DNA from: Nageia nagi
Taxonomy: Eukaryota; Plantae; Pinophyta
Direction of reading: 5' to 3'
NCBI GenBank assembly: GCA_050084985.1
Contig: JBITNC010000001.1
Span: 89,218,001 to 89,282,000, forward strand
Length of the DNA stretch: 64,000 bases
Shown: in pieces, positions 19,501 to 48,150 of the stretch
How positions within the stretch are numbered: position 1 is the stretch's first letter
Layout: each line of letters begins with the position of its first letter
The notes under the pieces: model-generated
Seen by the model: the letters and a program-made list of their open reading frames with translations, nothing else
Told to the model about the DNA's origin: nothing
The model's database searches: none
Position numbers and translations under genes: made by a program

Positions 19501-22500
19501 TATTTACTTAAGTTCACTAGGATATTTGCCACCATATGTAAAATCATAACAACTTTTTGTTATGATTCGCCACCGTTTGTCACTGTGTGCCACCGTAAGT
19601 TATTTGCACCTATTCTATTTATTCTTGGTGCATTCACTGCAATAATCAATCAGTTTTGGTGTGAACTTCATTTCGTTGTAGTGCTTTGCAAATTCTGTGA
19701 TCTTGGGTGAATGATTGTTTCGCTGTTTTGGCCTTCATTCTCTTCATGGTATCAGAGAGGGTCGACCTCTGAATCTCCCTCAATTTGATCAGCAAATATG
19801 TGAGGGGGGATTGGCCTCTTTACGCCAATCCCCCCCTCATCTCCATTTTTTTTGTTGCTTTTTGATGTGTGGTAGATGACCTGTGTTTGTGCTCTTTGTG
19901 GAGAGGAAATCTACGTAGTTTGGTGGTTGTTCAGAATTTTGTGAAGGAGAAAGAGTGATGGATTTGTGGGAGGCCTAATCACCCTCTACCTGGCAGCATT
20001 TGGTTCTATTCCTTTGCAACAAGGCCATGAGTTTTTAACTCATGGGAATCAAATTGACGATGGTGGATATTGGTGATCTTTTGATTCTATTCCTTTGCAA
20101 CAAGGCCATGAATTTTAATTCATGGGAATCAAAATTGGCGATGGCGAGAGAGCCTTGTTAGCATTCAGTCTTGGAGCTTTTGGCGTCAGATTTCGTAGTT
20201 GGGTTCTCTCTCGCGTCTTTGTCTTGACAAGATCTGCATGCAGCGCGTGTTTTTCGGCCTGTGGGTTCAGGATCCCCACTCCCTGTGTTTGAGAGTCTTC
20301 TCTCGCTTCCAGCAGACGGCACCTTTGGCCGCGAGATCGTTTGCGTGATGCTCGTCTCCCTGCCGACCACCGCTGACTGTTGAAAACGTCCAGATCTGAT
20401 GCGCATCTTTCACTCAGCTCCTCGCGCAACCCTGCTCGCGGCCCTCCTGTTTGCCACTTCATTGTCGGCCCTCTTAAGCCGCTTGCGCGCGTTTCCGACT
20501 GCCTCTGCTCCTCCCACGATGGTTATGGCTGCCTCGCGATTTTTTCCCGCGTCCACGACGGCGTTGACTTTGCCTAGTCTTCGTTGCTCAGTTTCGTCGC
20601 GTTTTTCTCCTGCGCAGCCACTCGGAATGCCACGTTCGTTCGCTTGTTCGTCTCGGCGTTTCCTGCGTAGCCTGATGGTGGTCGTCGTTTCTCCCTCTTC
20701 GTTGGATGGCTTGCCTTCCTTCGATGGACTTGCATGGTGGCCCATTTTATGATTTGCTTGGAGATTTTTTATCAGCAGTTGCTCAAGAACGTCATAAAAA
20801 TGACAATCATGTTGTTTTTACATTTTTGTCAACCAAATTTACTTTTGATAGTAAATTTGGATACCCATTATCGAGCTACACCTTTTTGCTTTTTGTTTCG
20901 CTCGATTTGGAGGACAATTGAAGAAGTTGTGAAGGTCAGAAGAATTGGACCCCCACCAATTTCGAATTTAATTGGGGCAGCTTGTGTAACAGTCACGTTT
21001 TTCGAGATTGTGCTTTCATCGGGGCTCATTTTTGGGAACGGACACTTTCATGATGTTCCTCATTCCATTCCGATCGTTTTGAGTAGCTAGATGACCCATT
21101 TTCCCTTCCCCATCAACCGATAATCACAATTTGAAGTTCTGCCATTTAAATTTAATTAAATTCACTGTTTTTAATTTAATTAAAATTTTCTAATGTTTTG
21201 GGCATTAAAAATTTAATTTTTGCTCCAAAACGAATTAATTCCATAACTTTTGCAAACGGACTTCATTTTGAGTACCGTTTTTTGCATTGTGGAGCAGACT
21301 TCGAATAGTTTTTGATGAAATTGGTTGTAAGCCTAATTTATAAAGGCAAATTTTAAGGGGGGGCTTTATTTACAACTTTGTTTTGATAGGTTCCTAGGAG
21401 ACACATCATGAGGATCAAACATTTATTACAGTCTTGAATTTTTGTTCAACATCACTTTGGTTGATGTTTAGTACTGCATTATGGTTCCTCATGCTCCCAT
21501 CGACTTTTTGAAGTCGTAGTTAGTGGACTGTTTCTCTACTAAGTTGTGCGGTCATCAGCATCTTTCATGGGGGATCACTTCTTATTCTAGTTGGGAGGAC
21601 TTCTATTTGTATCCAGTTTTTTGCATCTTCCTCGTGTTGCATTCTCTTCATCGTGTTGAATCTTGGCACCAAGAGTTTTGGTGATCCATCTTCTTCGACA
21701 GTGTTCCTGAGTTCGACATCGACTTCCTTCATGGATCCTTGTACCATTTTTGGTACAGTGTTAATGGGTTCTAGGTACCATTTGGTGTGCCTTTTGCATC
21801 ATCAACAAGCTCTTCAAAGAAAAGTTCGTGCCCTAATTTCAGGTTGAGGGACTCTCTTTGTTTGTGTTGATCGAGTAGTGACTCTTTGATCCAGCTTTTG
21901 TTGGAGGTTCTTTGTTCTTCAGTTGCACATGTTCGTTATCTTTGGTCGCTCTACAACTTCTTTGTGCTTGATTCATTTTGTTAATGGGTACCTCATCAGG
22001 CCTTGTTGCCGGGACCCATATTGTACTAGTTTGCTTATGTCTACTACCTCCTAGCCTCGCTTAAAGGGGGGTGTTAGAGTTAGTTAAGCTTGCTAGGTTA
22101 GGGTATCTAACTTTAGAGTCCCTATTACCGTTGTTTTGTAAAACCATGTGCACGAACTTTTCTTTGAAGAGCTTGTTGGTGATGCAAAAGGCACACCAAA
22201 TGGTACCTAGAACCCATTAACACTGTACCAAAAATGGTACAAGGATCCATGAAGGAAGTCGATGTCAAACTCAGGAACACTGTCGAAGAAGATGGATCAC
22301 CAAAACTCATTGTGCCAAGATTCAACACGATGAAGAGAATGCAACACGAGGAAGATGCAAAAAACTGGATACAAATAGAAGTCCTCCCAACTAGAATAAG
22401 AAGTGATCCCCCATGAAAGATGCTGATGACCACATAACTTAGCAGAGAACAAGTCCACTAACTAGACTATCAAAAAGTCGACGAGAGCATGAGGAACAGT

Positions 22501-25500
22501 AATGCCGTACTAAACATCAACCAAAGTGATGTTGAACAAAAATTCAAGGCTGCAATAAGATTCGAACCTCATAATGTATCTCCTAGGAACCTGTTAAAAT
22601 AAAGTTGTAAATAGAGCCCCCTTTTGAAATTTGCCTTTATAAATTAGGCTTACAACCAATTTCATCAAAAACTATTCGAAGTCTGCTCCACAATGCAAAA
22701 AACGGCACTCAAAATGAAGTCCGTTCGCAAAAGTTATGGAATTAATTCGTTTTGGAGCAAAAATTAAATTTTTAATGCCCAAAACATTAGAAAAATTTAA
22801 TTAAATTAAAAACAGTGAATTTAATTAAATTTAAATGGCAGAACTCCAAATTGTGATTCATGATTGATGGGGGAGGCAAAATGGGTCATTCAGCTACTCA
22901 AAACGATCGGAATGGAATGAGGAACATCATGAAAGTGTCCGTTCCCAAAAATGAGCCCCGATGAAAGCACAATCTCGAAAAACGTGACTGTTACACAAGC
23001 TGCCCCAATTAAATTCGAAATTGGTGGGGGTTCAATTCTTCTGACCTTCACAACTTCTTCAATTGTCCTCCAAATCAAGCGAAACAAAAACAAAAAAGTG
23101 TAGCTCGATAATGGGTATCCAAATTTACTATCAAAAGTAAATTTGGTTGACAAAAAATGTGAAAAAACATGACTGTCATTTTTATGACGTTTTTGAGCAA
23201 CTGCTGAAAAAATCTTCAAGCAAATCATAAAATGGGCCACCATGCAAGTCCATCGAAGGAAGGCAAGCCATCCAACGAAGAGGGAGAAATGACGACCGAC
23301 ACACGGTTGTCCCAAGGCGGCAACAGCCAAACGAGGAGCACCAAAAGAGCTACGAAGATTGCAACGGAGGGAGGTCGGCAGTGGAGAGGAACGGCTACGC
23401 GAAATAGAATGGCGACGACGACCACCATCAGGCTACGCAGGAAACGCCGAGACGAACGAGCGAACGAACGTGGCATTCCGAGTGGCTGCGCAGGAGAAAA
23501 ACGCGACGAAACTGAGCAACGAAGACTAGGCAAAGTCAACGCCGTCGTGGAGCGGGAAAAAAATCGCGAGGCAGCCATAACCGTCGTGGGAGGAGCAGAG
23601 GCAGTCGGAAACGCGCGCAAGCGGCTTAAGAGGGCCGACAATGAAGCGGCAGACAGGAGGGCCGCGAGCAGGGTTGCGCGAGGAGCTGAGTGAAAGATGC
23701 GCATCAGATCTGGACGTTTTCAACAGTCAGCGGTGGTCGGCAGGGAGACGAGCATCACGCAAACGATCTCGCGGCCAAAGGTGCCGTCTGCTGGAAGCGA
23801 GAGAAGACTCTCAAACACAGGTAGTGGGGATCCTGAACCCACAGGCCGAAAAACACGCGCTGCATGTAGATCTTGTCAAGACAAAGACGCGAGAGAGAAC
23901 CCAGCTACGAAAATCTGACGCCAAAAGCTCCAAGACTGCCAAACTACGTAGATTTCCTCTCCACAAAGAGCACAAACATAGGTCATCTACCACACATCAA
24001 AAAGCAGCAAAAAAAATGGAGATGAGGGGGGGATTGGCGTAAAGAGGCCAATCCCCCCTCACAGATTTGCTGATTTCCTTTCATGGTATCAGAGCGGGTC
24101 GACCTCTGAATCTCCCTCAATTTGATCAGCAAATCTGTGAGAGGGCATCTCCATTATTTTTTTTTGCTGCTTTTTGATGTGTGGTAGATGACCTGTGTTT
24201 GTGCTCTTTGTGGAGAGGAAATCTACGTAGTTTGGTGGTTGTTCATGAATTTTGTGAAGGAGAAAGAGTGATGGATTTGTGGGAGGCCTAATCACCCTCT
24301 ACCTGGCAGCATTTGGTTCTATTCCTTTGCAACAAGGCCATGAGTTTTTAACTCATGGGAATCAAATTGACGATGGTGGATATTGGTGATCTTTTGATTC
24401 TATTCCTTTGCAACAAGGCCATGAATTTTAATTCATGGGAATCAAAATTGGCGATGGCGAGAGAGCCTTGTTAGCATTCAGTCTTGGAGCTTTTGGCGTC
24501 AGATTTTCGTAGTGGGTTCTCTCTCGCGTCTTTGTCTTGACAAGATCTGCATGCAACGCGTGTTTTTCGGCCTGTGGGTTCAGGATCCCCACTCCCTGTG
24601 TTTGAGAGTCTTCTCTCGCTTCCAGCAGACGGCACCTTTGGCCGCGAGATCGTTTGCGTGATGCTCGTCTCCCTGCCGACCACCGCTGACTGTTGAAAAC
24701 GTCCAGATCTGATGCGCATCTTTCACTCAGCTCCTCGCGCAACCCTGCTCGCGGCCCTCCTATCTGCTGCTTCATTGTCGCCCTCTTAAGCGCTTGCGTC
24801 GCGTTTCCGACTGCCTCTGCTCCTCCCACGACGGTTATGGCTGCCTCGCGATTTTTTCCCGCGTCCACGACGGCGTTGACTTTGCCTAGTCTTCGTTGCT
24901 CAGTTTCGTCGCTGTTTTTCTCCTGCGCAGCCACTCGGAATGCCACGTTCGTTCGCATCGTTCGTCTCGGCGTTTCCTGCGTAGCCTGATGGTGGTCGTC
25001 GTTTCTCCCTCTTCGTTGGATGGCTTGCCTTCCTTGATGGACTTGCATGGTGGCCCATTTTATGATTTGCTTGGAGATTTTTTATCAGCAGTTGCTCAAA
25101 AAACGTCATAAAAATGACAGTCATGTTTTTACATTTTTGTCAACCAAATTTACTTTTGATAGTAAATTTGGATACCCATTATCGAGCTACACCTTTTTGC
25201 TTTTTGTTTCGCTCGATTTGGAGGACAATTGAAGAAGTTGTGAAGGTCAGAAGAATTGGACCCCCACCAATTTCGAATTTAATTGGGGCAGCTTGTGTAA
25301 GTCACGTTTTTCGAGATTGTGCTTTCATCGGGGCTCATTTTTGGGAACGGACACTTTCATGATGTTCCTCATTCCATTCCGATCGTTTTGAGTAGCTAGA
25401 TGACCCATTTTGCCTTCCCCATCAACCGATAATCACAATTTGAAGTTCTACCATTTAAATTTAATTAAATTCACTGTTTTTAATTTAATTAAAATTTTCT

Positions 25501-28500
25501 AATGTTTTGGGCATTAAAAATTTAATTTTTGCTCCAAAACAAATTAATTCCATAACTTTTGCAAACGGACTTCATTTTGAGTACCGTTTTTTGCATTGTG
25601 GAGCAGACTTCGAATAGTTTTTGATGAAATTGGTTGTAAGCCTAATTTATAAAGGCAAATTTTAAGGGGGGGCTTTATTTACAACTTTGTTTTGATAGGT
25701 TCCTAGGAGACACATCATGAGGATCAAACATTTATTACAGTCTTGAATTTTTGTTCAACATCACTTTGGTTGATGTTTAGTACTGCATTATCATTCCTCA
25801 TGCTCCCATCGACTTTTTGATAGTCATAGTTAGTGGACTTGTTCTCTACTAAGTTGTGCGGTCATCAGCATCTTTCATGGGGGATCACTTCTTATTCTAG
25901 TTGGGAGGACTTCTATTTGTATCCAATTTTTTGCATCTTCCTCGTGTTGAATCTTGGCACAATGAGTTTTGGTGATCCATCTTCTTCGACAGTGTTCCTG
26001 AGTTCGACATCGACTTCCTTCATGGATCCTTGTACCATTTTTGGTACAGTGTTAATGGGTTCTAGGTACCATTTGGTGTGCCTTTTGCATCATCAACAAG
26101 CTCTTCAAAGAAAAGTTCGTGCCCTAATTTCAGGTTGAGGGACTCTCTTTGTTTGTGTTGATCGAGTAGTGACTCTTTGATCCAGCTTTTGTTGGAGGTT
26201 CTTTGTTCTTCAGTTGCACATGTTCATTATCTTTGGTCACTCTACAACTTCTTTGTGCTTGATTCATTTTGTTAATGGGTACCTCATCAGGCCTTGTTGC
26301 CGGGACCCATATTGTACTAGTTTGCTTATGTCTACTACCTCCTAGCCTTGCTTAAAGGGGGGTGTTAGAGTTAGTTAAGCTTGTTAGGGTATCTAACTTT
26401 AGAGTCCCTAAGTTAGTTATCATTTAATGTTTACGGTCATTGAATGTTTACGATCATTTAATGTTTACCGTTGTTTTGTAAAACCATGTGCACAATACCA
26501 TGTGCTCAAACCATGGTATTTGTTCTTGTAATGGTTTTACAAAACAACGGTAATAGGGACTCTAAAGTTAGATACCCTAACCTAGCAAGCTTAACTAACT
26601 CTAACACCCCCCTTTAAGCGAGGCTAGGAGGTAGTAGACATAAGCAAACTAGTACAATATGGGTCCCGGCAACAAGGCCTGATGAGGTACCCATTAACAA
26701 AATGAATCAAGCACAAAGAAGTTGTAGAGCGACCAAAGATAACGAACATGTGCAACTGAAGAACAAAGAACCTCCAACAAAAGCTGGATCAAAGAGTCAC
26801 TACTCGATCAACACAAACAAAGAGAGTCCCTCAACCTGAAATTAGGGCATGAACTTTTCTTTGAAGAGCTTGTTGATGATGCAAAAGGCACACCAAATGG
26901 TACCTAGAACCCATTAACACTGTACCAAAAATGGTACAAGGATCCATGAAGGAAGTCGATGTCGAACTCAGGAACACTGTCGAAGAAGATGGATCACCAA
27001 AACTCATGGTGCCAAGATTCAACACGATGAAGAGAATGCAACACGAGGAAGATGCAAAAAACTGGATACAAATAGAAGTCCTCCCAACTAGAATAAGAAG
27101 TGATCCCCCATGAAAGATGCTGATGACCGCACAACTTAGTAGAGAACAAGTCCACTAACTACGACTGTCAAAAAGTCGACGAAAGCATGAGGAATGATAA
27201 TGCAGTACTAAACATCAACCAAAGTGATGTTGAACAAAAGTTCAAGACTACAATAAGGTTTGATCCTCATGATGTGTCTCCGAGGAACCTATCAAAACAA
27301 AGTTGTAAATAAAGCCCCCCCTTAAAATTTGCCTTTATAAATTAGACTTACAACCAATTTCATCAAAAACTATTCGAAGTCTGCTCCACAATGCAAAAAA
27401 CGGCACTCAAAATGAAGTCCGTTTGCAAAAGTTATGGAATTAATTCGTTTTGGAGCAAAAATTAAATTTTTAAAGCCCAAAACATTAGAAAAATTTAATT
27501 AAATTAAAAATAGTGAATTTAATTAAATTTTAAATGGCAGAACTTCAAAACGTGATTATCGGTTGATGGGGAAGGCAAAATGGGTCATGCAGCTACTCAA
27601 AACGATCGGAATGGAATGAGGAACATCATGAAAGTGTCTGTTCCAAAAAATGAGCCCCGATGAAAGCACAATCTCGAAAAACGTGATTGTTACACAAGCT
27701 GCCCCAATTAAATTCGAAATTGGTGGGGGTTCAATTCTTCTGACCTTCACAACTTCTTCAATTGTCCTCCAAATCGAGCGAAACAAAAAGCAAAAAGGTG
27801 TAGCTCGATAATGGGTATCCAAATTTACTATCAAAAGTAAATTTGGTTGACAAAAATGTAAAAAAAAAACATGATTGTCATTTTTATGACGTTTTTGAGC
27901 AACTGCTGATAAAAAAATCTTCAAGCAAATCATAAAATGGGCCACCATGCAAGTCCATCGAAGGAAGGCAAGCCATCCAACGAAGAGGGAGAAACGACGA
28001 TCGACACACGGTTGTCCCAAGGCGGCAATAGCCAAACGAGGAGCACCAAAAGAGCTACGAAGATTGCAACGGAGGGAGGTCTGCAGTGGAGAAAGGCCGG
28101 CAATGGAGTGAGGCACGACCATGGCTAGCAGCAGAAGTCAATGCTGGCTAGACAGCGCACAGACTATGCAAACAACGGGGGAAGTCAACGCAACCGTCGT
28201 GGAAAGGAGCAGAAGGCAGCGGAAGGCGCTCGAGCGGCGTAAGGAGGCCGACAGCTAAGCGGCAGACAGGAGGGCCGCAAGCAAAAACGCGCGAGGAGCC
28301 GAGTAAAGGATGCGCGGCCAAATCTAGACAGGTTCAGCAGGCAGCAATGGACGGCAAGGTGCGAGGTGGTGAAATTATGGTAACATTCAACACCCTCCCT
28401 TAGGTTGACATAAGGGGCCAAGAATATGCTCTCTATAATCTTCATTTGAAGAAGAGGAGGTGAATGTATCATCAGTACAACACCTTCCCTTGGTAGTAGC

Positions 28501-31500
28501 TACCTTTGCTTTCAAACGAACAAAAGTGACCTGTAGCAAAGGCTTTGTGAAGATGTCTACCAACTGATTTTTTGTAGGAATATACTGCAAATTGATATCA
28601 CCATTTTGCACCTTTTTACGTATGCAATGCATATCCACCTTTGTGTGCTTGGATTGCTGATGCAATGCTCGATTCTTGGCCATGTGGATGGTACTTCAAT
28701 TATTAACCCATTTACTGTACGGTTTGACCTACCCACTTACACCCCACATTATTCTTGCCCTTCAACCGAGGAACCAACTCTCAAGTTCTGCTCTTCATTA
28801 AAGTATCATAAACTTTCAAGTTGCATTCCATGTGGGTTTTCCATGTGCCTTCTTGAAAGTAGAAGGATCATCCCTCCTTTAGCATTACACATGAAAGCAA
28901 AATTCACCCAATTTTTCTATCCATGAGTCTTACCCCTTGCTTGCCCTGTCCAATGACTTTTATGTAACCTCCTCCATAAGTCTCCTAGACCCCTATGATG
29001 ATTTGAAGGCCTTTAAGAAACCTTAGTAGCCCCGTTCGAATGAGTATTGTGATGATGATCACCATGTCCATGTTCTCCATCATTGTTTATCTACTACACC
29101 TCCAATGTGAAGAGCCATCCCATGACCATCACCATGCACACCATGAAGAGAATGAAGGCCAAAACAGCGAAACAATCATTCACCCAAGATCACAGAATTT
29201 GCAAAGCACTACAACGAAATGAAGTTCACACCAAAACTGATTGATTATTGCAGTGAATGCACCAAGAAATAAATAGAATAGGTGCAAATAACTTACGGTG
29301 GCACACAGTGACAAACGGTGGCACACGGTGGCGAATCATAACAAGAAGTTGTTATGATTTTACATATGGTGGCAAATATCCTAGTGAACTTAAGTAACTA
29401 AATACTCAAGCAAATAAAATAAATAAAACACTAATACCCCCCCTTAAGTGAAACTAGGAGGTAAAACAAGTGACACATAAAGATGAGTCCCGGCAACAAG
29501 GCCTGATTAGGTACTCATTTACAATATCTAGCTGAAAGATGATGAAAAAACCACATGGGAAAAACCATCTATCAGCAAAGAAAGAAGAAAAAGAAAGAAA
29601 GAAAGAAAGAAAGGAAGATGTCCTCAATCAACACCCCCCAAGGACAACTTCAGTCACCCCGAGCAAAGTTTGCAACTCAAGGAAGCGAGGCGATGCAAAG
29701 GATTTCGTGAAGATGTCGGCAATCTGCTGTTGAGTCGAAAGATACTCCAAGCTGAGAACCCCATCCTGAATATGCTGTCGAATGAAGTGCATGTGAACCT
29801 CAATATGCTTGGTTCGCTGATGCTCAACAGGATTGCGAGAAATATGAATTGCACTTTGGTTATCACAGAAGAGAACAGTAGGGTGATCCTGAGAAAAACC
29901 AAACTCAGCCAATAACTGACGAAGCCAAAGAGCCTCCTGACTAGCTGTAACTGCTGCCCTGTACTCTGCCTCTGTAGATGATAATGCAATAGCCTGCTGC
30001 TTCTTGCATGACCAAGATATAGGAGAAGATCCAAGACAGAAAACATAACCAGAAGTGGAACGTCTATCATCAACTGAACCAGCCCAATCTGAATCAGTAT
30101 AGCCCACTAACTCAGTAGAACCACGGCCATAGGATAAACCAAAGTGAGGTGTACCTCTCAGGTATCGAAGAATGCGCTTGGCAGCTTGCCAATGACTATC
30201 ATGAGGAGCCTGAGAGAATCGAGAGAGGAAACCAACTGCATAGGAAATGTCAGGACGAGTATGGGTAAGATACAAAAGACTTCCTACCAATTGGCGATAC
30301 AAGGTAGCATCACAAAGAGGAGAGGTGCAAGAAGAAGTCAATGTAACCCCAGATTGAAATGGCGTAGGAGAGGTCTTGCAATCAGTCATCCGAAAATGCT
30401 GAAGAAGATCCAAGGTATACTTGTGCTGACATAAAGAAATTTCTGTAGCAGTCTGATTGATCTGAAAACCAAGGAAGTAATGGGCCAATCCCAAATCTGC
30501 CATCTCAAATTGCGCTGAAAGAGAACGCTGAACAGTCTGAATATGAGAAGAGGAACTCCCAGTGAGAAGCAAATCATCAACATAAAGAACAAGGATGGTA
30601 ATGTCCTTCCCATCTCTCCAAATGTAAACGGTATTATCAGAGTAACACCTGACAAAACCAGTAGAAAGAAGAAAGGAATCCATCTTTGCATACCAAGCTC
30701 GAGGAGCTTGTTTGAGACCATAGAGAGACTTTCGTAGTCTGCAAACAAGAGAGGCATCCTCAACAAAACCCAAAGGTTGCTCCATATAAATCTCCTCATG
30801 CAAATCTCCATGTAAGAAAGCACTCTTAACATCCATCTGAAAAATAGACCATCCCTGAGAGGCAGCAAGTGCAAGTACAAGCCAAAAGAGTATGAGATTT
30901 TTGTGCATAAAGGGAAATTGTATGAGGCAATGGGACAAATTAGTTCAAGTATAAGTGAAAGCCTTTGGTTTCACTTAGATGGATGTAAAACCCCTTTTGA
31001 ATGTATGGACAAACTTGCAAATTTGTTTGGTAAGGTTGATCACATAAGGTCTATGCAGCTTGAAGCAGAACTCACAGCACTTTCACCTGATGATTTCTCT
31101 TACAATTGTTGACTACCTCACAAAATTCAAGGAACTTCTCACACAATTAAAAGGAAGTGGTAAAAAGAAGGAAGACAAAGATTGTGTGTATCTCATTCTT
31201 TCAAAATTGAGGGGACCTTTCCAAATTTTTGCCTCTACATTTCTGTCTACTATGGATGCACTTGGGACAAATTTTACTTTGCCTAGCTTAGAAGAGTTTT
31301 GTGAAAGACTTACTAGGGAAGAGATCAAACTTTCCACTCTTGAGTCTTCTACCTCTTCTTCCAAAGCTTTAGTTGCATCCACTCCCAAAGGGAAAGGCAA
31401 ATCTAAAGCTCAATCTAAACCCACTACAACTTCTCCCAAGCCAACTCCTTCTACAAAAAAGGAGAAATCTAACACCACTTGTACCTATTGTAAAAAGGAG

Positions 31501-34500
31501 GGTCATCCTGCCACTAGGTGTTGGAAAAAGTTGCAAGATTTAGAAGAAACCATAAAAAAAAATAAGGTTGTTGCCCCAAAAGAACATGGTAAAGCCCTTA
31601 ATGTCCAAGGTCGATCTTCTAAATCTTGTTCACAAAAATGGGTTTTAGATTCTGGTGCTTCCCATCATATGACCTCTTCCCAAGAGTCATTCACCTTACT
31701 CTCTTCTGGTTCAACTTCTAGCATTGAGGTAGGAGACTCTACCTTTATTCCTGTTCAAGGACAAGGAGATATTGTGGTTGATGATGGTTGTATCTACAAT
31801 GTATTGTATGTGCCCAATATTTCAGCAAATCTTCTTTCCATCTATCAGATATGCACTTCAGGCACAGGGAAAACTGTTTTGTTTACCCCTCATGGAGCAG
31901 AGATTAGAAGTCTCAAGGATCCACAATCACTTATTTGTCAAGGTGTTATTGATCATGATGCACGATTGTATTTCTTTGAGGGTTTTGATACTTCTTCAGG
32001 TTCATGCCTTGTTGCTCATGCAGATTTTGAGAGTAAAATTTGGCATGAAAGATTTGGCCATCTTAATTATAGGTATTTGAAGGAGTTGAGCACTCATAAT
32101 ATGGTTTTGGGATTACCTAAGGTTTCCACCAGTGATGGTGTTTGTCCAGGTTGTGCACTTGGTAAACAACATCAAGATCCTTTTCCCAAAGGAAAATCCC
32201 ATCGAGCATCTTCACCTTTGGAGTTGATTCATAGTGATTTGATGATTTTTCCCACACCTTTCAAGGGAGCTAAGTATGCATTGACATTTATAGATGATTT
32301 CTCAAGACGTACTTGGGTATATTTTCTCAAGTACAAAAGTGATGTTCTCTCTCACTTTAAAGTTTTCAAAGCTTTAGTTGAGAATCAGGCTTCCACATGC
32401 ATCAAAAAGCTTCGTACTGATAATGGGGGGGAGTACTTTAGCACTGAGTTTTCTGATTTTCTTACTGCTCATGGGATTATACATCAACATTCTGTTCCTT
32501 ACACACCTCAACAAAATGGTGTGGCTGAGAGGAAGAATCGTACTTTGAAGGAGATGGCTAACTGCATGATGCATTCTAGAGAATTACCACCTATTTTTTG
32601 GGCTGAGGCAGTTAATTGTGCTAATTATATTCAAAATCGTACACCCCATAGAGCTCTTGATCATATTACTCCAGAGGAGGCTTGGTCTGGAATTAAGCCT
32701 GATGTCTCATCTTTTCGAGTTTTTGGGAGTTATGCTTGGGCTCATATTCCGAAGAAGAAAAGAAAGGCTTTGGATAAGAAGAGTACACCACTCATTTTTG
32801 TTGGCTATTGTGAAGACATGAAGGCTTATCGACTCATTGATCCTGCTACACATGATGTCTTCTTTCATACTCATGTACAGTTTGATGAGCGACTTCATTG
32901 TTCTGACACTCCCTCTTCTTCTCCCCCTTCTCCTTCTCTTGATATTTCTCCTATGGTTGATATGATTGAGGATGATTCTAGCACTGCTCCTCCTTCACCA
33001 GTCACAGCACCTGCTACCACAGTTGAGGCTTCTACATCCCTCGTTGATTCTACTAGTGCCCCTTTGCCTAAGTGGGCACGAACTACTGTTGAGGAGGCTC
33101 TTCCTTTTATCCAGGATCTTCCATCTTCTAGACGCCCTCCTTCCATTGGGACTGGCCTTGTTTGTCAGTCAATTTTGGGTGATCCCCAAACCTTTTCACA
33201 GGCACATGGAATACAGGAGTGGGATGATGCTATGAATGTTGAGTATTCTTCTTTGATGAAGAATCAGACTTGGGACTTAGTGCTTCTTCCCGAGGGAAGA
33301 AAGATGGTTCGTTGTAAGTGGGTTTACCGAACCAAGCTGATGGGTCTATTGATAAGTACAAAGCTCGTCTGGTAGCTAAGGGTTTTTCACAGGTTGAAGG
33401 TGTTGATTACACTGAAACCTTTGCCCCTGTTGCTAAGATGAATTCTGTTCGGCTTGTACTTGCACTTGCTGCCTCTCAGGGATGGTCTATTTTTCAGATG
33501 GATGTTAAGAGTGCTTTCTTACATGGAGATTTGCATGAGGAGATTTATATGGAGCAACCTTTGGGTTTTGTTGAGGATGCCTCTCTTGTTTGCAGACTAC
33601 GAAAGTCTCTCTATGGTCTCAAACAAGCTCCTCGAGCTTGGTATGCAAAGATGGATTCCTTTCTTCTTTCTACTGGTTTTGTCAGGTGTTACTCTGATAA
33701 TACCGTTTACATTTGGAGAGATGGGAAGGACATTACCATACTTGTTCTTTATGTTGATGATTTGCTTCTCACTGGGAGTTCCTCTTCTCATATTCAGACT
33801 GTTCAGCGTTCTCTTTCAGCGCAATTTGAGATGACAGATTTGGGATTGGCCCATTACTTCCTTGGTTTTCAGATCAATCAGACTACAGAAATTTCTTTAT
33901 GTCAGCACAAGTATACCTTGGATCTTCTTCAGCGTTTTCGGATGACTGATTGCAAGACCTCTCCTACGCCATTTCAATCTGGGGTTACATTGACTTCTTC
34001 TTGCACCTCTCCTCTTTGTGATGCTACCTTGTATCGCCAATTGGTAGGAAGTCTTTTGTATCTTACCCATACTCGTCCTGACATTTCCTATGCAGTTGGT
34101 TTACTCTCTCGATTCTCTCAGGCTCCTCATGATAGTCATTGGCAAGCTGCCAAGCGCATTCTTCGATCCCTGAGAGGTACACCTCACTTTGGTTTATCCT
34201 ATGGCCGTGGTTCTACTGAGTTAGTGGGCTATACTGATTCAGATTGGGCTGGTTCAGTTGATGATAGACGTTCCACTTCTGGTTATGTTTTCTTCTTGGA
34301 TCTTCTCCTATATCTTGGTCATGCAAGAAGCAGCAGGCTATTGCATTATCATCTACAGAGGCAGAGTACAGGGCAGCAGTTACAGCTAGTCAGGAGGCTC
34401 TTTGGCTTCGTCAGTTATTGGCTGAGTTTGGTTTTTCTCAGGATCACCCTACTGTTCTCTTCTGTGATAACCAAAGTGCAATTCATATTTCTCGCAATCC

Positions 34501-37500
34501 TGTTGAGCATCAGCGAACCAAGCATATTGAGGTTCACATGCACTTCATTCGACAGCATATTCAGGATGGGGTTCTCAGCTTGGAGTATCTTTCGACTCAA
34601 CAGCAGATTGCCGACATCTTCACGAAATCCTTTGCATCGCCTCGCTTCCTTGAGTTGCAAACTTTGCTCGGGGTACTGAAGTTGTCCTTGGGGGTGTTGA
34701 TTGAGGACATCTTCCTTTCTTTCTTTCTTTCTTTCTTTTTCTTCTTTCTTTGCTGATAGATGGTTTTTCCCATGTGGTTTTTTCATCATCTTTCAGCTAG
34801 ATATTGTAAATGAGTACCTAATCAGGCCTTGTTGCTGGGACTCATCTTTATGTGTCACTTGTTTTACCTCCTAGTTTCACTTAAGGGGGGGTATTAGTGT
34901 TTTATTTATTTTATTTACTTGAGTATTTAGTTACTTAAGTTCACTAGGATATTTGCCACCATATGTAAAATCATAACAACTTCTTGTTATGATTCGCACG
35001 GTGCACGTTGTCACTGTGTGCCACCGTAAGTTATTTGCACCTATTCTATTTATTCTTGGTGCATTCACTGCAATAATCAATCAGTTTTGGTGTGAACTTC
35101 ATTTCGTTGTAGTGCTTTGCAAATTCTGTGATCTTGGGTGAATGATTGTTTTCGCTGTTTTGGCCTTCATTCTCTTCAATCACGCAAAGATCTCGCGGCC
35201 AAAGGCGCCAACTGCCGTGAGCGTGAGAAAAATTCTCAGACGCAAGGAGTGGGGATTCTGAACCCACAAGCCGAAAAACACACGCATGAAGATCCGTCAA
35301 GATAAGAGCGCGAGAGAGAACCCAGCTTAAAAAAGGAAAAACTTCAAAACAATGCTTGCAAATTTGAACTGCTCTGGTACCATGAAGAGAATGAAGGCCA
35401 AAACAGCGAAACAATCATTCACCCAAGATCACAGAATTTGCAAAGCACTACAACGAAATGAAGTTCACACCAAAACTGATTGATTATTGCAGTGAATGCA
35501 CCAAGAATAAATAGAATAGGTGCAAATAACTTACGGTGGCACACAGTGACAAACGGTGGCACACGGTGGCGAATCATAACAAGAAGTTGTTATGATTTTA
35601 CATATGGTGGCAAATATCCTAGTGAACTTAAGTAACTAAATACTCAAGTAAAAATAAAACACTAATACACCACTGTGGTCCTTATGAGAAGTAATAGAAG
35701 TTAGAATCTCACATTCACCATGATGCCTGTATGCAGAACATGAGGCCTATTATGAACATTTTAAGTATTGAAGGGATGATTCACCAGTGATTTTGGTTCA
35801 TTATTTGAATATTTGTCATCCACATGGGAAAATAGAGTGCACCAACATTCAGAGCTTGGAAAAAGGTGTAAGAAAAGAATCACTTGAATTGTCTTCACAG
35901 CTGCAAAGATATGGCCCAAGTATGCTAATTGCAATCTTTTATCCTCTGCCAATTCTATAATGCTGTTGCTCAAGGAATATGATTTTTCTGTTGAGTTGAA
36001 TTATTATAATTTTGGTTCCATTGTTTCCATTATAAATATGCAAAAACAAAACATAGTAGAATCAGCAGCCTCTAGCGGATACTGAATGGTCAAATTTTCA
36101 ACAGTGGTCAAATATCTCAAATTTCAATGATGACAATCAATACCAGTAACAACCACATTGATGACCAGCTCAATGATATCAATTGTACTGTCAGTGTCCC
36201 ATACAGCTACAGCCCTAATATTCCACACCATGTTTTGTCAACCAAAATCATAGCTCAGGTGTCTAGGGGAGAGAACTTGGAACGTCCCACAACTCAGCTA
36301 GCTAGGCAAGCTCAGTTGTCCATTGAGTAGGGACTACACTCCCCTACCTTAAAGCAATGCCGGATTCTAATAATATTTGGGTATTTTCTACATACACAGA
36401 TCTAAAGATGCATATGCACGAATGGTCTCACTTTTGTTGGCCTTGCCATTTGTAGTTTAATGAAATGTTTTACATAATATTCACTCTTTCTTATTTATGC
36501 AGAATTAAAAGTGATGAGCATGATGGCTTCTTGTTCTTGATAACACTAATAACTTGGACTACTCATTGTTGTTTTTTTATTTTATCTAATAGTAAATAGT
36601 GTTGGTCTGTTTTTTTAACAAATTTGTATACGTGGATGTTTTAAATTTTTAATGGATGACCTTTTTTCCCAGTAATTAAACATGTGTATGGAAAAATGCA
36701 TTTTTTTGTGTACCTGTCTATGTATTATTTCAATTTGTTGACCTATGCATTGTTAGGAGCATATATAATAATATAGTTTTGTGTGTTACTAAATTGGACA
36801 AGTGGATATGCCTCAAGGAGAGGGTGTGGAATTTGGATTTACAAAAATGGAGCATATATAATATATATTTATGTTAAATAAAAATGGATGAGTGGATATG
36901 CCTAAAATGAAGTATAGAGAATTTGGATTTAGTACTTACACATGCATGTGTGTGGTGTAAAAAGCGATTTTATCATGTTACTGTAAAAATACAGAATTGT
37001 TTTATATGTTATCTGAGACAGTCAGGCATGAGTTGACTTATACAGACATTATGATATAGTGCAGTATAGGATATATATACAAAACATGCTGTAAATGAGA
37101 ACTCACATTAGAACTTTTTTTAGAATTTCTATGTTTAATTTAATATTGGCTCGAAGCAAAACTAAACCACAGTAGTCCTGGACATGAATGTTTCAAACAT
37201 TAAGCAAAATTTCAACCTCGATATACTGGTAGTCCACACCTTAGCTTAGGCTCTAGAAAGGTATCCTTTCCCATTCCTTAACTGTCTGTTACATCATACT
37301 TCACAGAATATAGTAGTATAATTTCTCAGAGCAAGTGCTATGTAGATGCAGAATTTAAATTTTGTTTACCATCCAGATCCTGGTGATGCTTGATTGGAGC
37401 TCCCTTTCCCTTTCCACTTGTTGGTCAACATTTGAGCTCATTTTAAACCATGTTGGATGGAAAAAGCGCTCCAATTTCATCCATGACCTTTTTCTTCTGT

Positions 37501-40500
37501 TAGGTGATGAATGCTTCTCATCCTTATATTAGTGTTTAGCAGTTTTGTTCTCCATTCTTTAAGATTTGAAGAGTATGCAAATTAATATTTAACTCATACT
37601 AGAAACAAAGGTAACATCATGGCATTTATATGGCATATTCAACCAGATGAATCATGTGGATGAGCCGTTCTATTGAGTTTCTCAAATGTTCTCCTCTTAA
37701 CCAGCATTCTCTTTAATGTTGCTACTTCCTTTACTTGTGCTCTCACTAAACTTCTTCCATGTGGCCTGAAAACTGTTCTCTTGGTTCAATCTGTCTTTAC
37801 AAATGAGCCATTTCAGTTTTTCAACAAACGCCAATTGCAATCAATGAAGTTTCAACTAATTTTAAACTTGCAAAATAACTGCATGTGCATTTTGAGTACA
37901 AAGGAAATGGGATCCTTTCTATTCCTTTTCCTTTAGAACTCATCATTACATGTTTTCCTCAATTACTGATTTTTTTTTTTGGTAGTAACACACTTGTTCT
38001 TCCATAGGGCCTGAACAACCGTTATCTTGGTTCAGTGTATCTTTATAAAGTAAGCCATTTCAGTTTTTCTGAAAACCCCAATTGTGATCAAAGAAGTTCC
38101 AACTGAGCTTAAACTTGCAAAATAACTGCATGTGCCTTTTGAGTACAAAGGAAGTGAGATTCCCTTATATTCCTTTTCTTTTAGAATTCATCATTACATG
38201 TTTTCCACAATTCCTGAAATTATTTTTTTGTAATAACACAATTGTGAGTTGACATGCAAACATTTCTGTCAAAATTACTAAAGCAAGGTCTACACCTATA
38301 TATTTCAAGGTCTCTGCAAACTTTACATGGACAGGCATTGCTACCAGGTTTTTCAAGACAACCAACTAGAATTTTGTAAAAAAAAAAGAAAAGGGAAAAA
38401 AAGGAGCATGCAATCATACTTTTGAAATTAAGATGAAAGGACCAATTTAAATTCTGAATTTCAGCCCAAGATAAGTCTGGTTATTTTTGTGTCATATGAA
38501 TTATTCAATGAACTAGCATGTGTTTTTGTTTCAGTTTTAGCCATTCAAATTCAAATTATTTTTAGAGTTAACCAATTTATGCTTTGTTAGAAACAAATTT
38601 TTGAAAGGCTTTATGAAGCATTGAAACATATCCAATTCAGCCTGAGATGCCTAAGAAAATGCTATTGTAAAGATGGTAAAAGCCAAAAAATAGTATTTTA
38701 CCCCTTATACCATTGAATATATTAACAACCATTGTGCCACAATGATTTGTCATATTGAATAATGATATTCTTTAAATATGTTCTGAGCAGAATGCCAACA
38801 AGTCCACTACATTTTGGATGATGGACCAAACATCTTTCTTAATGAAATTATAGGCCAATTCTAATCCTGGTCCAGTTTTTGTAAATTCTTGCAATAAGAA
38901 GGCTTATAGCTGTGTAATCAGCATCAAGAATGCCTAGGGAAGTCCATTAGAAGGGTTTAATGTAAACTGTCAGAAGAACCTACTTTATTAGATACAGGTC
39001 CCACTAGATGGAGTTAATACAATTTCTAAATAAGAATTGCTAACTTATTTGTGGATTCACCTCCAAAATCTTTCAAGAATAGTATAAAGTATAATGCCTG
39101 TGAGGAGCATATCTTGCAAAGCAGAGTCAGGCTGTGAATTTCCATTCAGTAAGCCTTATAGAGTTTTTTGTGAGTTTGGCAAAACCAATATCATTGTTGA
39201 AGCAATGCAATTTATATTGCCTTTTCTTCCTCCTATATATTCTTAGCTTTTTTTTGCCTCAAAATAAAACAAAGAAACCACCATTATCAAGATATCTTAA
39301 TGGTTTAGACTTTAGACAATGATTTACACTTCCTCAATTTCTGTTGATTCACACATCTAAAAACATTCTTGTGGCAAATTTTCAAGGAAACAATAAAAGA
39401 TGTTCTATTTCAATTTTTCTTTCATTATGTTTCTATGTGAAAGTGGTCATTCCTTTTGCTTGAAGTGATACCTGGAAATTGAGAAATTAAAAGTAGAAAC
39501 TTAAAAGCCTCCAAGGAACAAATAATTAAAACTTAATTCATGGAGTGTTATGCCTTGATATATCCAAGTCTTTTGAATAACAAAGACTTAATTGTGTCCA
39601 TGTTAGGATGTTTACGATCATTTCAACACCTGCATAATCCAATCAGCAGGAGTTTGAGAGAAAGATGACTTTTTGTTAAACCCTGGAATGTCATTGGCAA
39701 GGTTCCCAAACACATCAATTGTGAGGAATATTTGAAAATAAAGAAAAACGTTTTACCCCATTGAATATTACTGTAACAATGTTGGTCTTGAGGAATGCTT
39801 AAAATAACATTATTTTTTGTGAAATTTGTGATATTATATGATTATTGAATTTTATTCTTGCCAAGTTCTTTTGCTGATTTCAATTGCAAGCGAAAAATAG
39901 CCCTGCCAAGCCTGAGTCTCAACAATAATAATGTAAACTATTTATTTACAATTTTATGAATAGAAAAGGTAAAATAATATATTTAATTTTGTTCTATTGT
40001 TTAGACTATCTCAGTTAAGCATATTAATTCTCTTCCTAGTATTTTCATCAGCACTAGAATATGAAACTATGTTTACAGTAGACTCTGGTTGTTGATAACT
40101 GATTATGAATGTAATAACCTCTTGGCATTTTTATTAGAGGAGCATTTGATTAACATGGAAATCCAAATTTATTGAACATTGAAGTGTTCTCTTTCATCTT
40201 AGAAAATTGCATACATGATCATATGAATTAACTTGTGGTTAGTTATCTATAGAGTTGTATCCAGCTTCCTTAAGAAGACTCTTTATCTTCCTCAAAGGCT
40301 TTTGGTATAAATGTATGGAAATGGATTCCATGGTGGTAAATACATGACTGGTTCCAATATTGGTACACATATGCACCCATCAGTTTGGTTGACTAGGTTG
40401 ATAATTTATGTAACAATATAACAAAATAGTAGGTCCAGGTGGTAGCCTAGCTTGTTGCTGGACCAAGATTCATGTCTTGTTTTGTTCAAGGATTTTGCAT

Positions 40501-43500
40501 TGACTTGCATTCAGGTTAATGAGATCGACATTTCGAGTCTGGTGGACCTGTTAACTTTTTGTCTTTGACACTTATTAATAGAAGGATCCTCAAATCTTGA
40601 ACGTGGTTTTCTATGGAAAACATAATCAGGGGTATTTAAAGCCCTTCTTGTTACTGAAGTGGTTTTTGGAATTCATAATATTCAAGGGTTAATGATTGTT
40701 TAAGAAATTGTTCATATCAATCCCTATCAAATGTTGAAACTTGCATTTAAATAAAGAGGAGAATTTTCAGAATGCATAAATCTCGATTGATACCACACAA
40801 TCATTAATATCATATTTTCTGAATACTTGGAACTATAAAGTATATTCATTTAATTTCACTCATCGACTGATAACCAATCAAGTCAAAATTAAAAGTAGGA
40901 TTCACAAGACCATATTTGAATCAATCTTGATATGATTTTTCATGCAGAAAACCCCTTTCTTGCTAAAATTTAGAACTAAAGTTCTATTTCTATCCACATC
41001 CTTCTGAATACTTGGAACTATAAAGTATATTCATTTAATTTCACTCATCGACTGATAACCAATCAATAAGTCAAAATTAAAAATAGGATTCACAAGACCA
41101 TATTTGAATCAATCTTGATATGATTTTTCATGCAGAAAACCTCTTTCTTGCTAAAATTTAGAACTAAAGTTCTATTTCTATCCATATCCTAACTAATTTC
41201 TAAATAAAATAATTAATACTTGGGTTGGTCCTGTTTCATAAAAGTCTTTGTGCAGAACCCCCGCTATAAGAACATTCAAATTCTGGGATAGACAAAACAA
41301 TTGAGTTGTGACATTTTAAAATCATAACAAAGAGCAAGCTAAAACAAGTTTAGAAAAAGTTTAAAATCTTTGAGGTTGAGATCGAATGGTCCTTAGGAAT
41401 TTGACCATGGTCTTTTTTCCAAGCTCCTTCTGCATTTTAGTAATCTGATCTATCTTCTAACTTTTGATCTTGTGATTTGATAATCCAGATTCTCCAATCT
41501 GCTTGAGTTCCTTTTCTTAGACACTCAGTGTCAACAATAGTTTTTTGTTCATAAAGAATTTTATTTTTTAGCATCATGCAATCCTTGCCGCAAATTCTCC
41601 ATTTCTTGTCAAAACTATTGAGCTGATTTTCACAATTTTGGGGTCTCTCAATTTTCTAGAGTAACTTTGAGTAACCCATTTCTATTGTTCAGATGAAGAG
41701 ACCCTTTGTTCCAGGAAGTACTTGAGACTATGATGATACGTCTTGATACATAAATGTCTCTCTAGTAAATATGGTTGCCAATGGTCAACATCTCCTTGCC
41801 GTAATGGACTTGGCCAAATTTCTGCCACTTAAAGCCTTATCAGTGTATTTGATGGGGTGTCTCTCTTGACTGCATCAATTCCTACACCTAAAGCATCACA
41901 CTCAATGGTTTTGTGAAATCCTGTATAGCCATGATTGGGGTGATACACATTGCATGCTTGAGATGCTCAAAGGCATGAACTACTGCATCTTTCCATTGAA
42001 ATGAATTCTTGCAAAGCATGGCAGTGAGTGGGGCCACAATCTTCCCATGATATTTGACAAATTTACAATAGTGGCCTGTCAATCCAACGAATCCTCACAA
42101 GTGTTTCAATGTTTTGGGTGGTGGCCAATTAACCATTGCTTCAATTTTCTTTGGATCAACTTGAACTTCCTCATGTGAGACTTCAAATTGGGTTCGTTCT
42201 GATCGGATGTTTGCTATGGAAATGGAACGAAGTTTTTTAGCAAATGGTTTATTTTCAAAAAGTCTTTGACTACCATAATCATGTAGAAAATATTTCTGGC
42301 TTCATTAAGAAGCCCATTCTGTATATAGCCTCCAATCATCGCTTTAAATTAGATTGTGTCTATGTTGCATTTCCCTAAAGAGATTTCTGTCTTCCTTAAG
42401 AAGACAATCTGGGCATAACTTGTGATTATTGAATTCAATGAGATGGTATCTCTCTGATAGATTTTGTCAAAGAGTACATCGACCTTTTTCATATTCCTAA
42501 ACTTAGCATACATGTCTGTCAGAGCATTCATCAAAGGTATTTGAGTGAAAGTCCAATCTGGGCATATCTTGTAATAATTGAATTCCATGGGATGGTGTCT
42601 CTCTGTTGCATTTTATTAAAATAGTACATGAGCCTTTTGTATCTCCCCAAACTTAGCATACATGTCTATTGTAACATTCATTACAGACGTGAAATCCTAA
42701 TCTGGGCATATCCTGCAATTATTTACTTCCATGAGATGGTGTCTGTCTACTACATTTTATCAAAACAGCACACATATCTTCCCAAACTTAGCATACATAT
42801 CTATCAGAACATTCATCATAGACATTTGACGGAAAGATCAATATGGGCATATACTGCAATTATTGAATTCTCTGAGATTATATATCTCTGTTGAATTTTA
42901 TCAAAACAGTATATATGCCTTCTGTAATAAATTAATCAAGCTATTGATATAGGCTTTCATTAAAAAAACATGTTAACCTTGCAAGCCTAGGCCTTTATTT
43001 TTTCAATGTTGGATGATTGTGTTCTATTTTGTTACCATCCTCTACATCTCCCCTGTTGTTACATGTATATGATTACTTGAATTAAGGAGTTGGAAGGACC
43101 TTGTTGGATTTTATATTTAATATTGCTCGATATTTCAGATATTTTAGAACTAAAGTTCATATATTCACTTGTAAACAAGATCTGATCAATCTTGAATTGT
43201 GTAATATGCCAAACAAATTGGAATGAAACAAAGCCCAAAAAATATAAGATGCTAACTTTCTGTTATTTTCTTATATTATTATTTTTTTTCTTTTTCACAA
43301 TTGGTAACCTTAGATCTTTAACATAACATAACTTGCATAAATAAAACCTAGAAAGTAGACTGCTGAGCATTCCTTGACTGAGTAGAAACGTGAAACTTGG
43401 CTGTCTTCGAAATAGAAAGAGGAAACAGAAAAGGGAGACATCATTAATTTTTGTCTTTGAAGGTTGACAAGGAATGTCCTCAAGCTCCAAAACGTTGCTG

Positions 43501-48114: not shown

Positions 48115-48150
<36 letters not shown>

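Follow-up and report, generated by a model that had tools for sequence, protein, structure and literature searches.

Complex LTR retrotransposons with three LTRs are known which, according to the accessible text of the reports, form by template switching during reverse transcription (Sabot and Schulman, 2007, PMC1950507; bioRxiv 10.1101/452573). A second related case is the aberrant integration of retroviruses. For this, the accessible part of one report describes that the host polymerase uses nearby host DNA or either viral strand as a template to extend the viral 3′ end, and that several pieces are appended and hundreds to thousands of base pairs of flank are duplicated (PMC5041404). Furthermore, composite insertions of Ac/Ds with re-replicated flanking DNA are documented in the accessible portion of another study (PMC4270019).

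Here, a compound copia insertion is analyzed that includes a copy of its own junction with the host chromosome. It is located in a stretch of 64,000 nucleotides of the Nageia nagi genome, which is called the window. A search of the literature, which mostly covered papers outside of subscription, revealed no plant report of such a structure or of a host pre-mRNA that had been copied from an internal PBS.

Results

The insertion and its integration site

The window contains one copia insertion of 21.9 kb (13727-35667) with the TSD CACCA, which lies in intron 2 of an SMO2-like gene. The name SMO2 is presumed and follows the label of an earlier sequence-only reading, not a database name; FA_hydroxylase (PF04116) was matched on the downstream exons (two of the four fragments scanned). 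The empty site was found on a contig of 2336 nt from a related organism (run X3), which carries both flanks of the insertion (left flank 28371-29094 at 518-1250 of the record, right flank 35667-36141 at 1-464). The TSD and the match of this contig to the left and the right flank indicate that a single integration event took place. The following features were annotated:

11738..54121, plus strand: intron 2 (42.4 kb) of the SMO2-like sterol methyl oxidase gene, from exon translations and GT/AG splice sites
12953..13726, minus strand: copied flank, an older copia relic (RNase H end, PPT, LTR start at 12975) that ends in the target site
13722..13726, no strand: left TSD CACCA, from sequence
13727..14018, minus strand: LTR1, the 3′ LTR of the compound element, 292 bp, TA...CA
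14019..15468, minus strand: PPT, RNase H and partial RT of the autonomous element A (RVT_2, E 8.6e-52), ending at the inversion junction J1 (about 15465-15468)
15469..19480, plus strand: element A, 5′-truncated gag-PR-INT-RT-RH (Pfam order) with an open frame to 19297, then 3′ UTR and PPT
19481..19746, plus strand: LTR2, common to A and N1; its U5 end delimits the source block on the right
19747..22154, plus strand: N1, with PBS, long non-coding leader/internal region, PPT and about 80 nt of the start of a different LTR (LTR-B, from 22072)
22150..24074, minus strand: N2, a non-autonomous family member truncated at both ends
24075..26525, plus strand: N3, with 9 nt of an LTR-like end, PBS at 24084, leader/internal region, PPT and partial LTR-B (from 26363)
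26526..28369, minus strand: V, with the 3′ part of a split leader, N-type internal region, PPT and partial LTR-B
28370..35178, plus strand: 6.8-kb duplicate, from self-comparison and alignment
28370-29143: flank of the duplicate with its own CACCA
29144-29436, minus strand: LTR3, within the duplicate
ending at 30886, minus strand: RT-RH, within the duplicate
plus strand: gag-pol within the duplicate, interrupted by several small indels
34892-35178: LTR4, within the duplicate
35179..35382, minus strand: PBS (35371-35382) and 5′ part of the split V leader
35383..35667, minus strand: LTR5, the 5′ LTR
35668..35672, no strand: right TSD CACCA, from sequence and the empty-site contig

The insertion is a zigzag of the autonomous element A and four non-autonomous relatives, with alternating orientation (the position of the N3/V boundary is approximate). 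The 1299-aa frame of element A has the Pfam order Retrotran_gag_2, Pol_BBD, gag_pre-integrs, rve, SH3, RVT_2. The outer LTRs are on the same strand, and LTR5 differs from LTR1 by no substitution in 285 bp and by one 7-bp deletion. The order gag-protease-integrase-RT(-RNase H), the direct outer LTRs, the PBS, the PPT and the TSD are those of the Ty1/copia family. Its TG...CA termini are not shared by LTR-A (TA...CA), while LTR-B and the LTR of the relative L022 begin with TG; the TA start is a variant LTR end and no ground for dropping the family. A gag-integrase query matched 53 metagenome loci with at best 61% identity, and these relatives were too distant to supply an intact leader or a donor of J1; an exact 22-nt leader pattern had no match in the metagenome contigs. 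Ty1/copia elements of the L001/L022 type (metagenome contigs, 61% amino acid identity) resemble the element in domain order, LTRs of about 290 bp, and a similar 3′ UTR and PPT. However, L022, with an LTR of 287 bp, is a simple two-LTR element, and its 3′ LTR begins with TG after the PPT, whereas LTR-A begins with TA.

The N copies differ pairwise by 1.1-4.8%, N2 from the others by 4.5-4.8%, and seven sites set N1 and N3 apart from N2 and V. N1 and N3, which are 1.1% apart, may represent one subfamily. None of the copies has its own LTR pair or TSD, which rules out that N1-N3 and V originated by nested insertions, and differences of up to 4.8% with shared partitions rule out that they are local duplicates of one template. 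The breakpoints are situated near cDNA landmarks, i.e., at the PBS at 19747, within the initial portion of LTR-B (22154 and about 26525), and, at 24074/24075, 9 nt before one PBS and about 40 nt after another. In contigs of other copies (run X1, records 4 and 5) the leader is followed by the PBS and the LTR end.

The 6.8-kb duplicate and its junctions

The sequence-only reading had proposed that 28370..35178 is a copy of 12953..19746. This was verified by self-BLAST (98.9% identity) and by a global alignment, which yielded 6749 matches, 28 substitutions (19 transitions, 9 transversions) and 13 indel events. The 774 bp outside the TSD were indeed copied, but what had been taken for host flank belongs to an older, minus-strand relic of a copia element, whose RNase H-like frame (12973-13278) shares 39% identity with the RNase H end of the present element (E 9e-20). 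Source and copy have one substitution in these 774 bp, and the flank is thus less diverged than the element part, a difference that is not significant (p=0.5). The private changes reported for the copies were also recovered: LTR copy 2 has a 16-bp and a 10-bp deletion, copies 1, 3 and 5 have neither, and copy 4 retains the 16 bp. LTR copy 4 contains six clustered changes beside a gap (source positions 19570-19576), which look like an uncorrected long-read error.

As had been described, the block ends exactly with the terminal CA of the LTR, which is followed by the PBS at 19747 in the source and by leader at 35179 in the copy. It was also correctly recognized that a single leader was split, because the halves at 28369 and 35179 align to adjacent sequence in the homologous leader (23715-23800) with an ambiguity of about 4 nt. 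Neither a TSD nor exact microhomology was found at the two junctions of the duplicate, and the left junction has a near-match only (TGG on both donors). Short homology at the switches, which is usual but not obligatory in aberrant one-ended integration, comprised 4-5 nt at 22150, where the left junction of N2 overlaps by this length, and the near-match at 28369/28370, and was absent from 35178/35179 and 24074/24075. The chance that one of 14 internal break-ends coincides exactly with one of ten LTR termini was estimated post hoc to be about 0.6%.

The exact U5 end had been attributed to a tRNA primed at the internal PBS on the SMO2 pre-mRNA, with RT running 6.8 kb into the upstream intron and a one-ended insertion of the cDNA. 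Besides this end, the position of the PBS at 19747 on the transcribed strand (11 of 12 nt match the family PBS) and that of the copied flank upstream in the host transcript are in accord with such a process. However, it gives no reason for a landing 8.6 kb from the source within its own 22-kb element, at junctions without guiding homology. Furthermore, the PBS is partly inside a 1.7-kb RNA stem, and the RT path leads through it, which would hinder priming and elongation; the age of the copy equals that of the integration (see below), and the copy bears no mark of an RNA origin, for instance an intron that had been spliced out, although the copied part has no intron to test. Reverse transcription of the pre-mRNA was therefore judged to be improbable.

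The same end could have arisen if a second U5 end, the internal one at 19746, had been strand-transferred by integrase into the leader close by, with re-replication and end joining supplying the flank, as in Ac/Ds, for which composite insertions of this kind are known. A CA-3′ join without microhomology is a strand-transfer outcome, U5 CA ends are present at both sides of 13727-19746, and the U3 end of the element begins with TA, not TG. In contrast, a free duplex U5 end would be required besides the strand leading on into N1, and the copy lacks a TSD. Integrase is not known to cut genomic LTR ends, which also counts against this route, and we regard it as having little likelihood. On the whole, it seems unlikely that the retrotransposon duplicated adjoining host DNA via an internal, tRNA-defined U5 end, be it by reverse transcription of host intron RNA from the internal PBS or by local re-insertion of the end by integrase.

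The age of the duplicate

The four RT-RNaseH-LTR copies have 16 private substitutions and no shared substitution. The private substitutions are distributed 5/5/4/2 among the copies after the six changes of the LTR4 patch had been taken out. The count begins six bases inside the J1 junction; one column at the J1 boundary, which groups copies 1 and 3, was read as junction sequence and left out, and if it were counted as a real shared change the numbers would be 1 shared and 16 private. The result of 0 shared versus 16 private substitutions indicates that duplicate and integration are of about the same age. The absence of shared changes gives only a bound on the lag between integration and copying: a lag of at least half of the copies' age has p<=0.03, and a lag of 20% of the age has p=0.22. 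The proposal that the copy post-dates integration holds insofar as it was templated after the left LTR had been joined to the chromosome, but it did so barely.

This timing bears on a later template switch of the FoSTeS/MMBIR/SDSA type. Positions 13727-15468 and 18039-19746 form an inverted repeat of 1.7 kb with 97-99% identity, the stem of which continues 4 nt into the PBS and has its base at 13723/19750. If this repeat had driven the switch, the end of the copy would reflect the base of a stem-loop and not tRNA priming, and because the U5 end is 4 nt from that base, the hairpin could have led to nearly the same end point. The local template and the near-match TGG at the left junction would also fit. 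However, the copy stops at the LTR terminus itself, 4 nt before the stem base is reached. Microhomology is missing from the right junction, and with 0 of 16 substitutions shared the switch would have to date from soon after integration. A repeat-driven origin is thus a doubtful explanation.

The private changes also bear on a possible assembly artefact, i.e., two haplotypes or a chimeric long read that had been stitched together. Several 1-bp indels in copy 2, the error-like patch in LTR4 and the divergence of 0.4%, which falls in the allelic range, would be compatible with it. But the private changes resemble real decay: ten of the 16 are C>T/G>A, seven of these ten at CG/CHG (background 27%, p=0.006), and of those in coding sequence 11 of 13 are nonsynonymous (neutral 72%), although eight of the ten C>T/G>A changes are located in the source arms. 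In addition, the copy is devoid of all ten private changes of the two source arms, the flanks of the insertion are colinear with the empty site, and an overlap assembler would hardly generate two joins without homology between which a leader is divided in register. An artefact was accordingly given only a small chance.

Among the matches listed no contig bridged 28369/28370 or 35178/35179 with 31 letters on each side, which is no evidence either way. The search covered four of 24 sequencing runs for 27300-30000 and three of 24 for 35140-36900, with 0.50 as the best share of words, and the contigs from the runs were all short and none was tied to the assembled individual. The structure is known from one locus in one assembly.

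Discussion

The preferred interpretation, to which a probability of about one half is assigned, is that the 6.8-kb block arose when repair synthesis copied the DNA of the new host junction locally, in the course of one complex integration or shortly after it. It is based on the one TSD, the identical outer LTRs, element A and four distinct non-autonomous templates, and the equal age of the RT-RH-LTR copies. The sequence-only reading had named template switching at the DNA level as its alternative, and this fits better once it is tied to an integration intermediate; its view of the exact U5 end as a pointer to the terminus of a tRNA-primed strand is likewise supported.

In a first step, stalled cDNAs of several family RNAs would prime on each other and yield the zigzag. 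The segment 13727-19746 resembles a pair of minus-strand cDNAs, each primed by a tRNA, that were linked through their 3′ ends, which would account for its being bounded by U5 on both sides. The connection of A to N1 at the PBS resembles an intermolecular second strand transfer. Subsequently, the outer ends would be joined by integrase. If the V leader was then broken or gapped, a plus-strand 3′ end could remain at 28369; this end would switch to the chromosome at 12953 and copy across the new junction. If the template strand was still discontinuous at 19746, the start of the tRNA-primed strand, a feature that is invisible in the finished sequence, the polymerase would run off there and thereby produce the exact U5 end, and the run-off end would be rejoined to 35179 without a TSD. 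A nearby landing and a missing TSD are expected for repair copying. Against this model, both outer ends are precise and have a 5-bp TSD, while the retroviral precedent has one aberrant end in the accessible text (PMC5041404). The at least five templates also exceed the number of packaged RNAs, which is usually two according to the accessible part of PMC6894440, and microhomology is absent from the right junction and limited to a near-match at the left one.

The locus would represent a fossil of an integration intermediate in the plant germ line, in which an autonomous element and several non-autonomous partners underwent repeated strand switching and the landing site was copied. It offers a sequence-level test of cDNA-intermediate repair. 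If general, this process would be a route to local segmental duplication and to long inverted repeats (siRNA sources) in giant introns of TE-rich plant genomes. Should the duplication via the U5 end be true, it would be a retrotransposon counterpart of the Ac/Ds composite insertions, recurrent across giant plant genomes.

As far as the accessible texts describe the known systems, the locus has in common with the three-LTR elements of Sabot and Schulman that there is one TSD, that the outer LTRs are near-identical, and that an internal LTR is common to two elements (LTR2 of A and N1). However, those are tandems of one family with three LTRs, whereas the present insertion draws on at least five templates and two LTR types, changes orientation four times at points outside the LTRs, and contains a copy of the host junction in its interior. 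Only A-LTR2-N1 consists of same-orientation cores joined via a shared internal LTR, and the other joins are inversions outside LTR homology. The tandem LTR-retrotransposon structures of plants are likewise TSD-bounded multi-unit insertions that arose in one event and were found in long-read assemblies, but in the accessible text they are direct LTR-internal-LTR arrays; structures like the one described here are a class outside that analysis, because more complex arrays were filtered out (PMC11899658). In Ac/Ds composite insertions, which according to the accessible text arise by alternative transposition and re-replication (PMC4270019), a nearby copy also consists of an exact element terminus and re-replicated flank. 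Ac/Ds needs a cut-and-paste transposase that acts on genomic termini, while here a copia element is involved, the copy has no TSD, and no DNA transposon terminus was found at the junctions of the duplicate. The one-ended aberrant integration of ASLV and HIV-1, in the accessible part of PMC5041404, resembles this locus in that pieces were added in either orientation, that several templates were used, and that a large stretch of neighbouring host DNA was copied. In that case one end of the provirus is aberrant, whereas the insertion described here has two precise outer ends and a 5-bp TSD, and its copy of host DNA is internal, crosses the junction and stops at U5.

Structure of the Compound Insertion

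The exon translations of the plus-strand gene in the window correspond to a sterol methyl oxidase-like protein, and Pfam found FA_hydroxylase on two of the four exon fragments scanned. Intron 2, giant and rich in TEs as would fit a gymnosperm-like plant, harbors a 21.9-kb insertion (13727-35667) with CACCA as target site duplication (TSD) at either side. Its outer LTRs (minus strand) differ by a single 7-bp deletion and no substitution. One 2336-nt contig of sequencing run X3, taken as one because length and depth were the same in the left-flank and right-flank comparisons, matched the left flank with letters 518-1250 and the right flank with letters 1-464, at a divergence of about 7-9%; by these matches it is the empty site of a related organism.

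Intron 2 and interior of the insertion in plus-strand order
11738-54121, plus strand: intron 2 of the sterol methyl oxidase-like gene
First, antisense: LTR1 and RT-RH
Second, sense: gag-pol and LTR2, Pfam domains in copia order
Third, sense: PBS and non-autonomous N1, running into part of a different LTR
Fourth, antisense: N2
Fifth, sense: N3, from 9 nt before its own PBS
Sixth, antisense: V
Seventh, after V: the 6.8-kb copy
Last, antisense: remainder of the V leader, PBS and LTR5

From its anatomy, the insertion is classified as Ty1/copia with a variant TA...CA LTR. This LTR type starts with TA (35667, 19481, 14018), in contrast to TG in the other LTR type and in a relative of the autonomous element A (L022:5111-10965); such a poor U3 end might favor complex integrations. 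The relative, a simple element with two 287-bp LTRs that are 90% alike, is a useful structural reference.

The non-autonomous pieces are 1.1-4.8% apart (1122 shared columns), and N1 and N3 stand against N2 and V in 7 of 1002 clean columns, indicating at least three different family members as templates. All of the pieces lack an LTR pair and a TSD of their own. This partner family (19747-28369) has a long, GC-rich, non-coding leader, its own LTR type, a 3′-UTR/PPT style like that of element A (76% over 107 bp), and a very high copy number in runs X3 and X5.

Further repeats were observed nearby. On the minus strand of intron 2, a hAT-type DNA transposon with DUF659 and zf-BED (Pfam; 43850-47804) has an 8-bp TSD and imperfect terminal inverted repeats of 16 bp. 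Degenerate minus-strand repeats of about 150 bp each (42350-42930), with a faint PPR-like translation (Pfam E 0.026, below cut-off), adjoin an RT/RNase H-like relic (41891-42301). Tandem duplications are perfect at 43380-43809 (215 bp; could be very recent or an assembly duplicate) and near-perfect at 40817-41190 (189 bp). Upstream of the gene (1-3100), a degenerate gypsy-like pol remnant was read by eye; a single-frame scan gave no relevant Pfam match.

Junctions and Age of the 6.8-kb Copy

The copy (28370-35178) differs from its source (12953-19746) by 19 transitions, 9 transversions and 13 indel events. The block begins 774 bp outside the TSD and stops at the LTR terminal CA, beyond which the PBS follows in the source and leader in the copy. 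On its two sides lie the halves of a single leader, which align with the homologous leader 23715-23800 in register to within about 4 nt. Contigs of other family copies read across the split: one of run X1 matched from 35179 onward (98 letters, 1 difference) after 21 unaligned letters, one of run X2 had a loose, leader-like end ahead of 35179, and in another of run X2 the match began exactly at 28370 after 58 unaligned letters. Both breakpoints, 28370 and 35178/35179, thus lie where the sequence-only reading had placed them. Its "host flank", in contrast, is no plain intron: the 774 bp belong to an older copia relic, of which they comprise the RNase H end, the PPT and the first 23 nt of the LTR. 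An assembly artefact is unlikely, although the junctions are known here from assembled sequence and the copy carries error-like indels. The structure is probably genuine, and unusual.

The RT-RH-LTR segment is present four times in the insertion. Across the stretch that all four cover, private substitutions number 5, 5, 4 and 2, and none is shared; these counts leave out six changes clustered at a gap in the internal LTR4, probably a consensus error, and one column bordering the inversion junction (~15465-15468). Had the duplication happened later, the copy would carry changes of both source arms; it should therefore be about as old as the integration, with p=0.03 for a lag of half the copies' age and p=0.22 for one of a fifth. 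The private changes resemble genuine decay: C>T or G>A accounts for 10 of 16, with 7 of the 10 in CG/CHG context against a background of 27% (p=0.006), and among 13 coding changes 11 are nonsynonymous, where neutrality predicts 72%. At conifer-type rates, which we assume, about 0.24% per copy corresponds very roughly to 1-2.5 million years. As the copies are of equal age, a single episode is the best reading for the inversion, the capture of the N pieces and the duplication.

A Possible Origin by Repair Copying at Integration

The best explanation of the block, with a probability of about one half, is repair copying at integration. The segment 13727-19746 would consist of two minus-strand cDNAs, each started from a tRNA, that stalled in RT and in gag, respectively, and then served each other as primers. 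An intermolecular second strand transfer would be expected to produce the junction with N1 at the PBS, following the reverse-transcription steps in PMC6894440. After attachment of LTR1 to the chromosome by integrase, the minus strand would run unbroken from 19746 into the host, yet start at U5. From the V leader, a plus-strand 3′ end could then switch to the chromosome at 12953, copy the flank, the TSD and both arms, and run off at U5, because a host polymerase would not enter primer RNA or cross the nick. The source differs; there, RT would have continued into the PBS. Rejoining of the copied end to 35179 would leave no TSD. Repair copying would jointly account for locality, exact end, missing TSD and equal age.

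The sequence-only reading had proposed reverse transcription of SMO2 pre-mRNA, primed by a tRNA at the internal PBS. It predicts the same U5 end but leaves the locality unexplained, and the tRNA would have to prime at, and RT traverse, a 1.7-kb RNA stem; this origin is improbable. A hairpin-driven template switch soon after integration is somewhat less unlikely, the U5 end lying just 4 nt away from where the 1.7-kb inverted repeat has its stem base; the target site happens to be able to pair with the four leading nucleotides of the PBS, which extends the stem by this much. Following the 3′ LTR on the element's strand, the target site (13723-13726) opens with 4 nt identical to those that begin the PBS (19747-19750). 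Such a match has a frequency of about 0.4% per position in flanking DNA, and may be chance or reflect base pairing between the target and a PBS overhang. Transfer of the internal U5 end by integrase with re-replication, as described for Ac/Ds composite insertions in PMC4270019, has little probability.

Comparison with Known Systems

In the literature searched, with most subscription papers outside its scope, no plant insertion was found to contain a duplicate of its own junction that ends at U5. That retrotransposons recurrently duplicate flanks through an internal U5 end is doubtful. Complex elements formed by template switching, as described in PMC1950507, 10.1101/452573 and PMC11899658, have the TSD, matched outer LTRs and a shared internal LTR in common with the Nageia insertion, but their pieces have the same orientation, which is not the case here. 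In the model published for aberrant retroviral integration (PMC5041404), several pieces are appended and host polymerase copies nearby host DNA and either viral strand. The Nageia insertion would work alike, yet the fit is imperfect, because both of its outer ends are normal and the model has one bad end.
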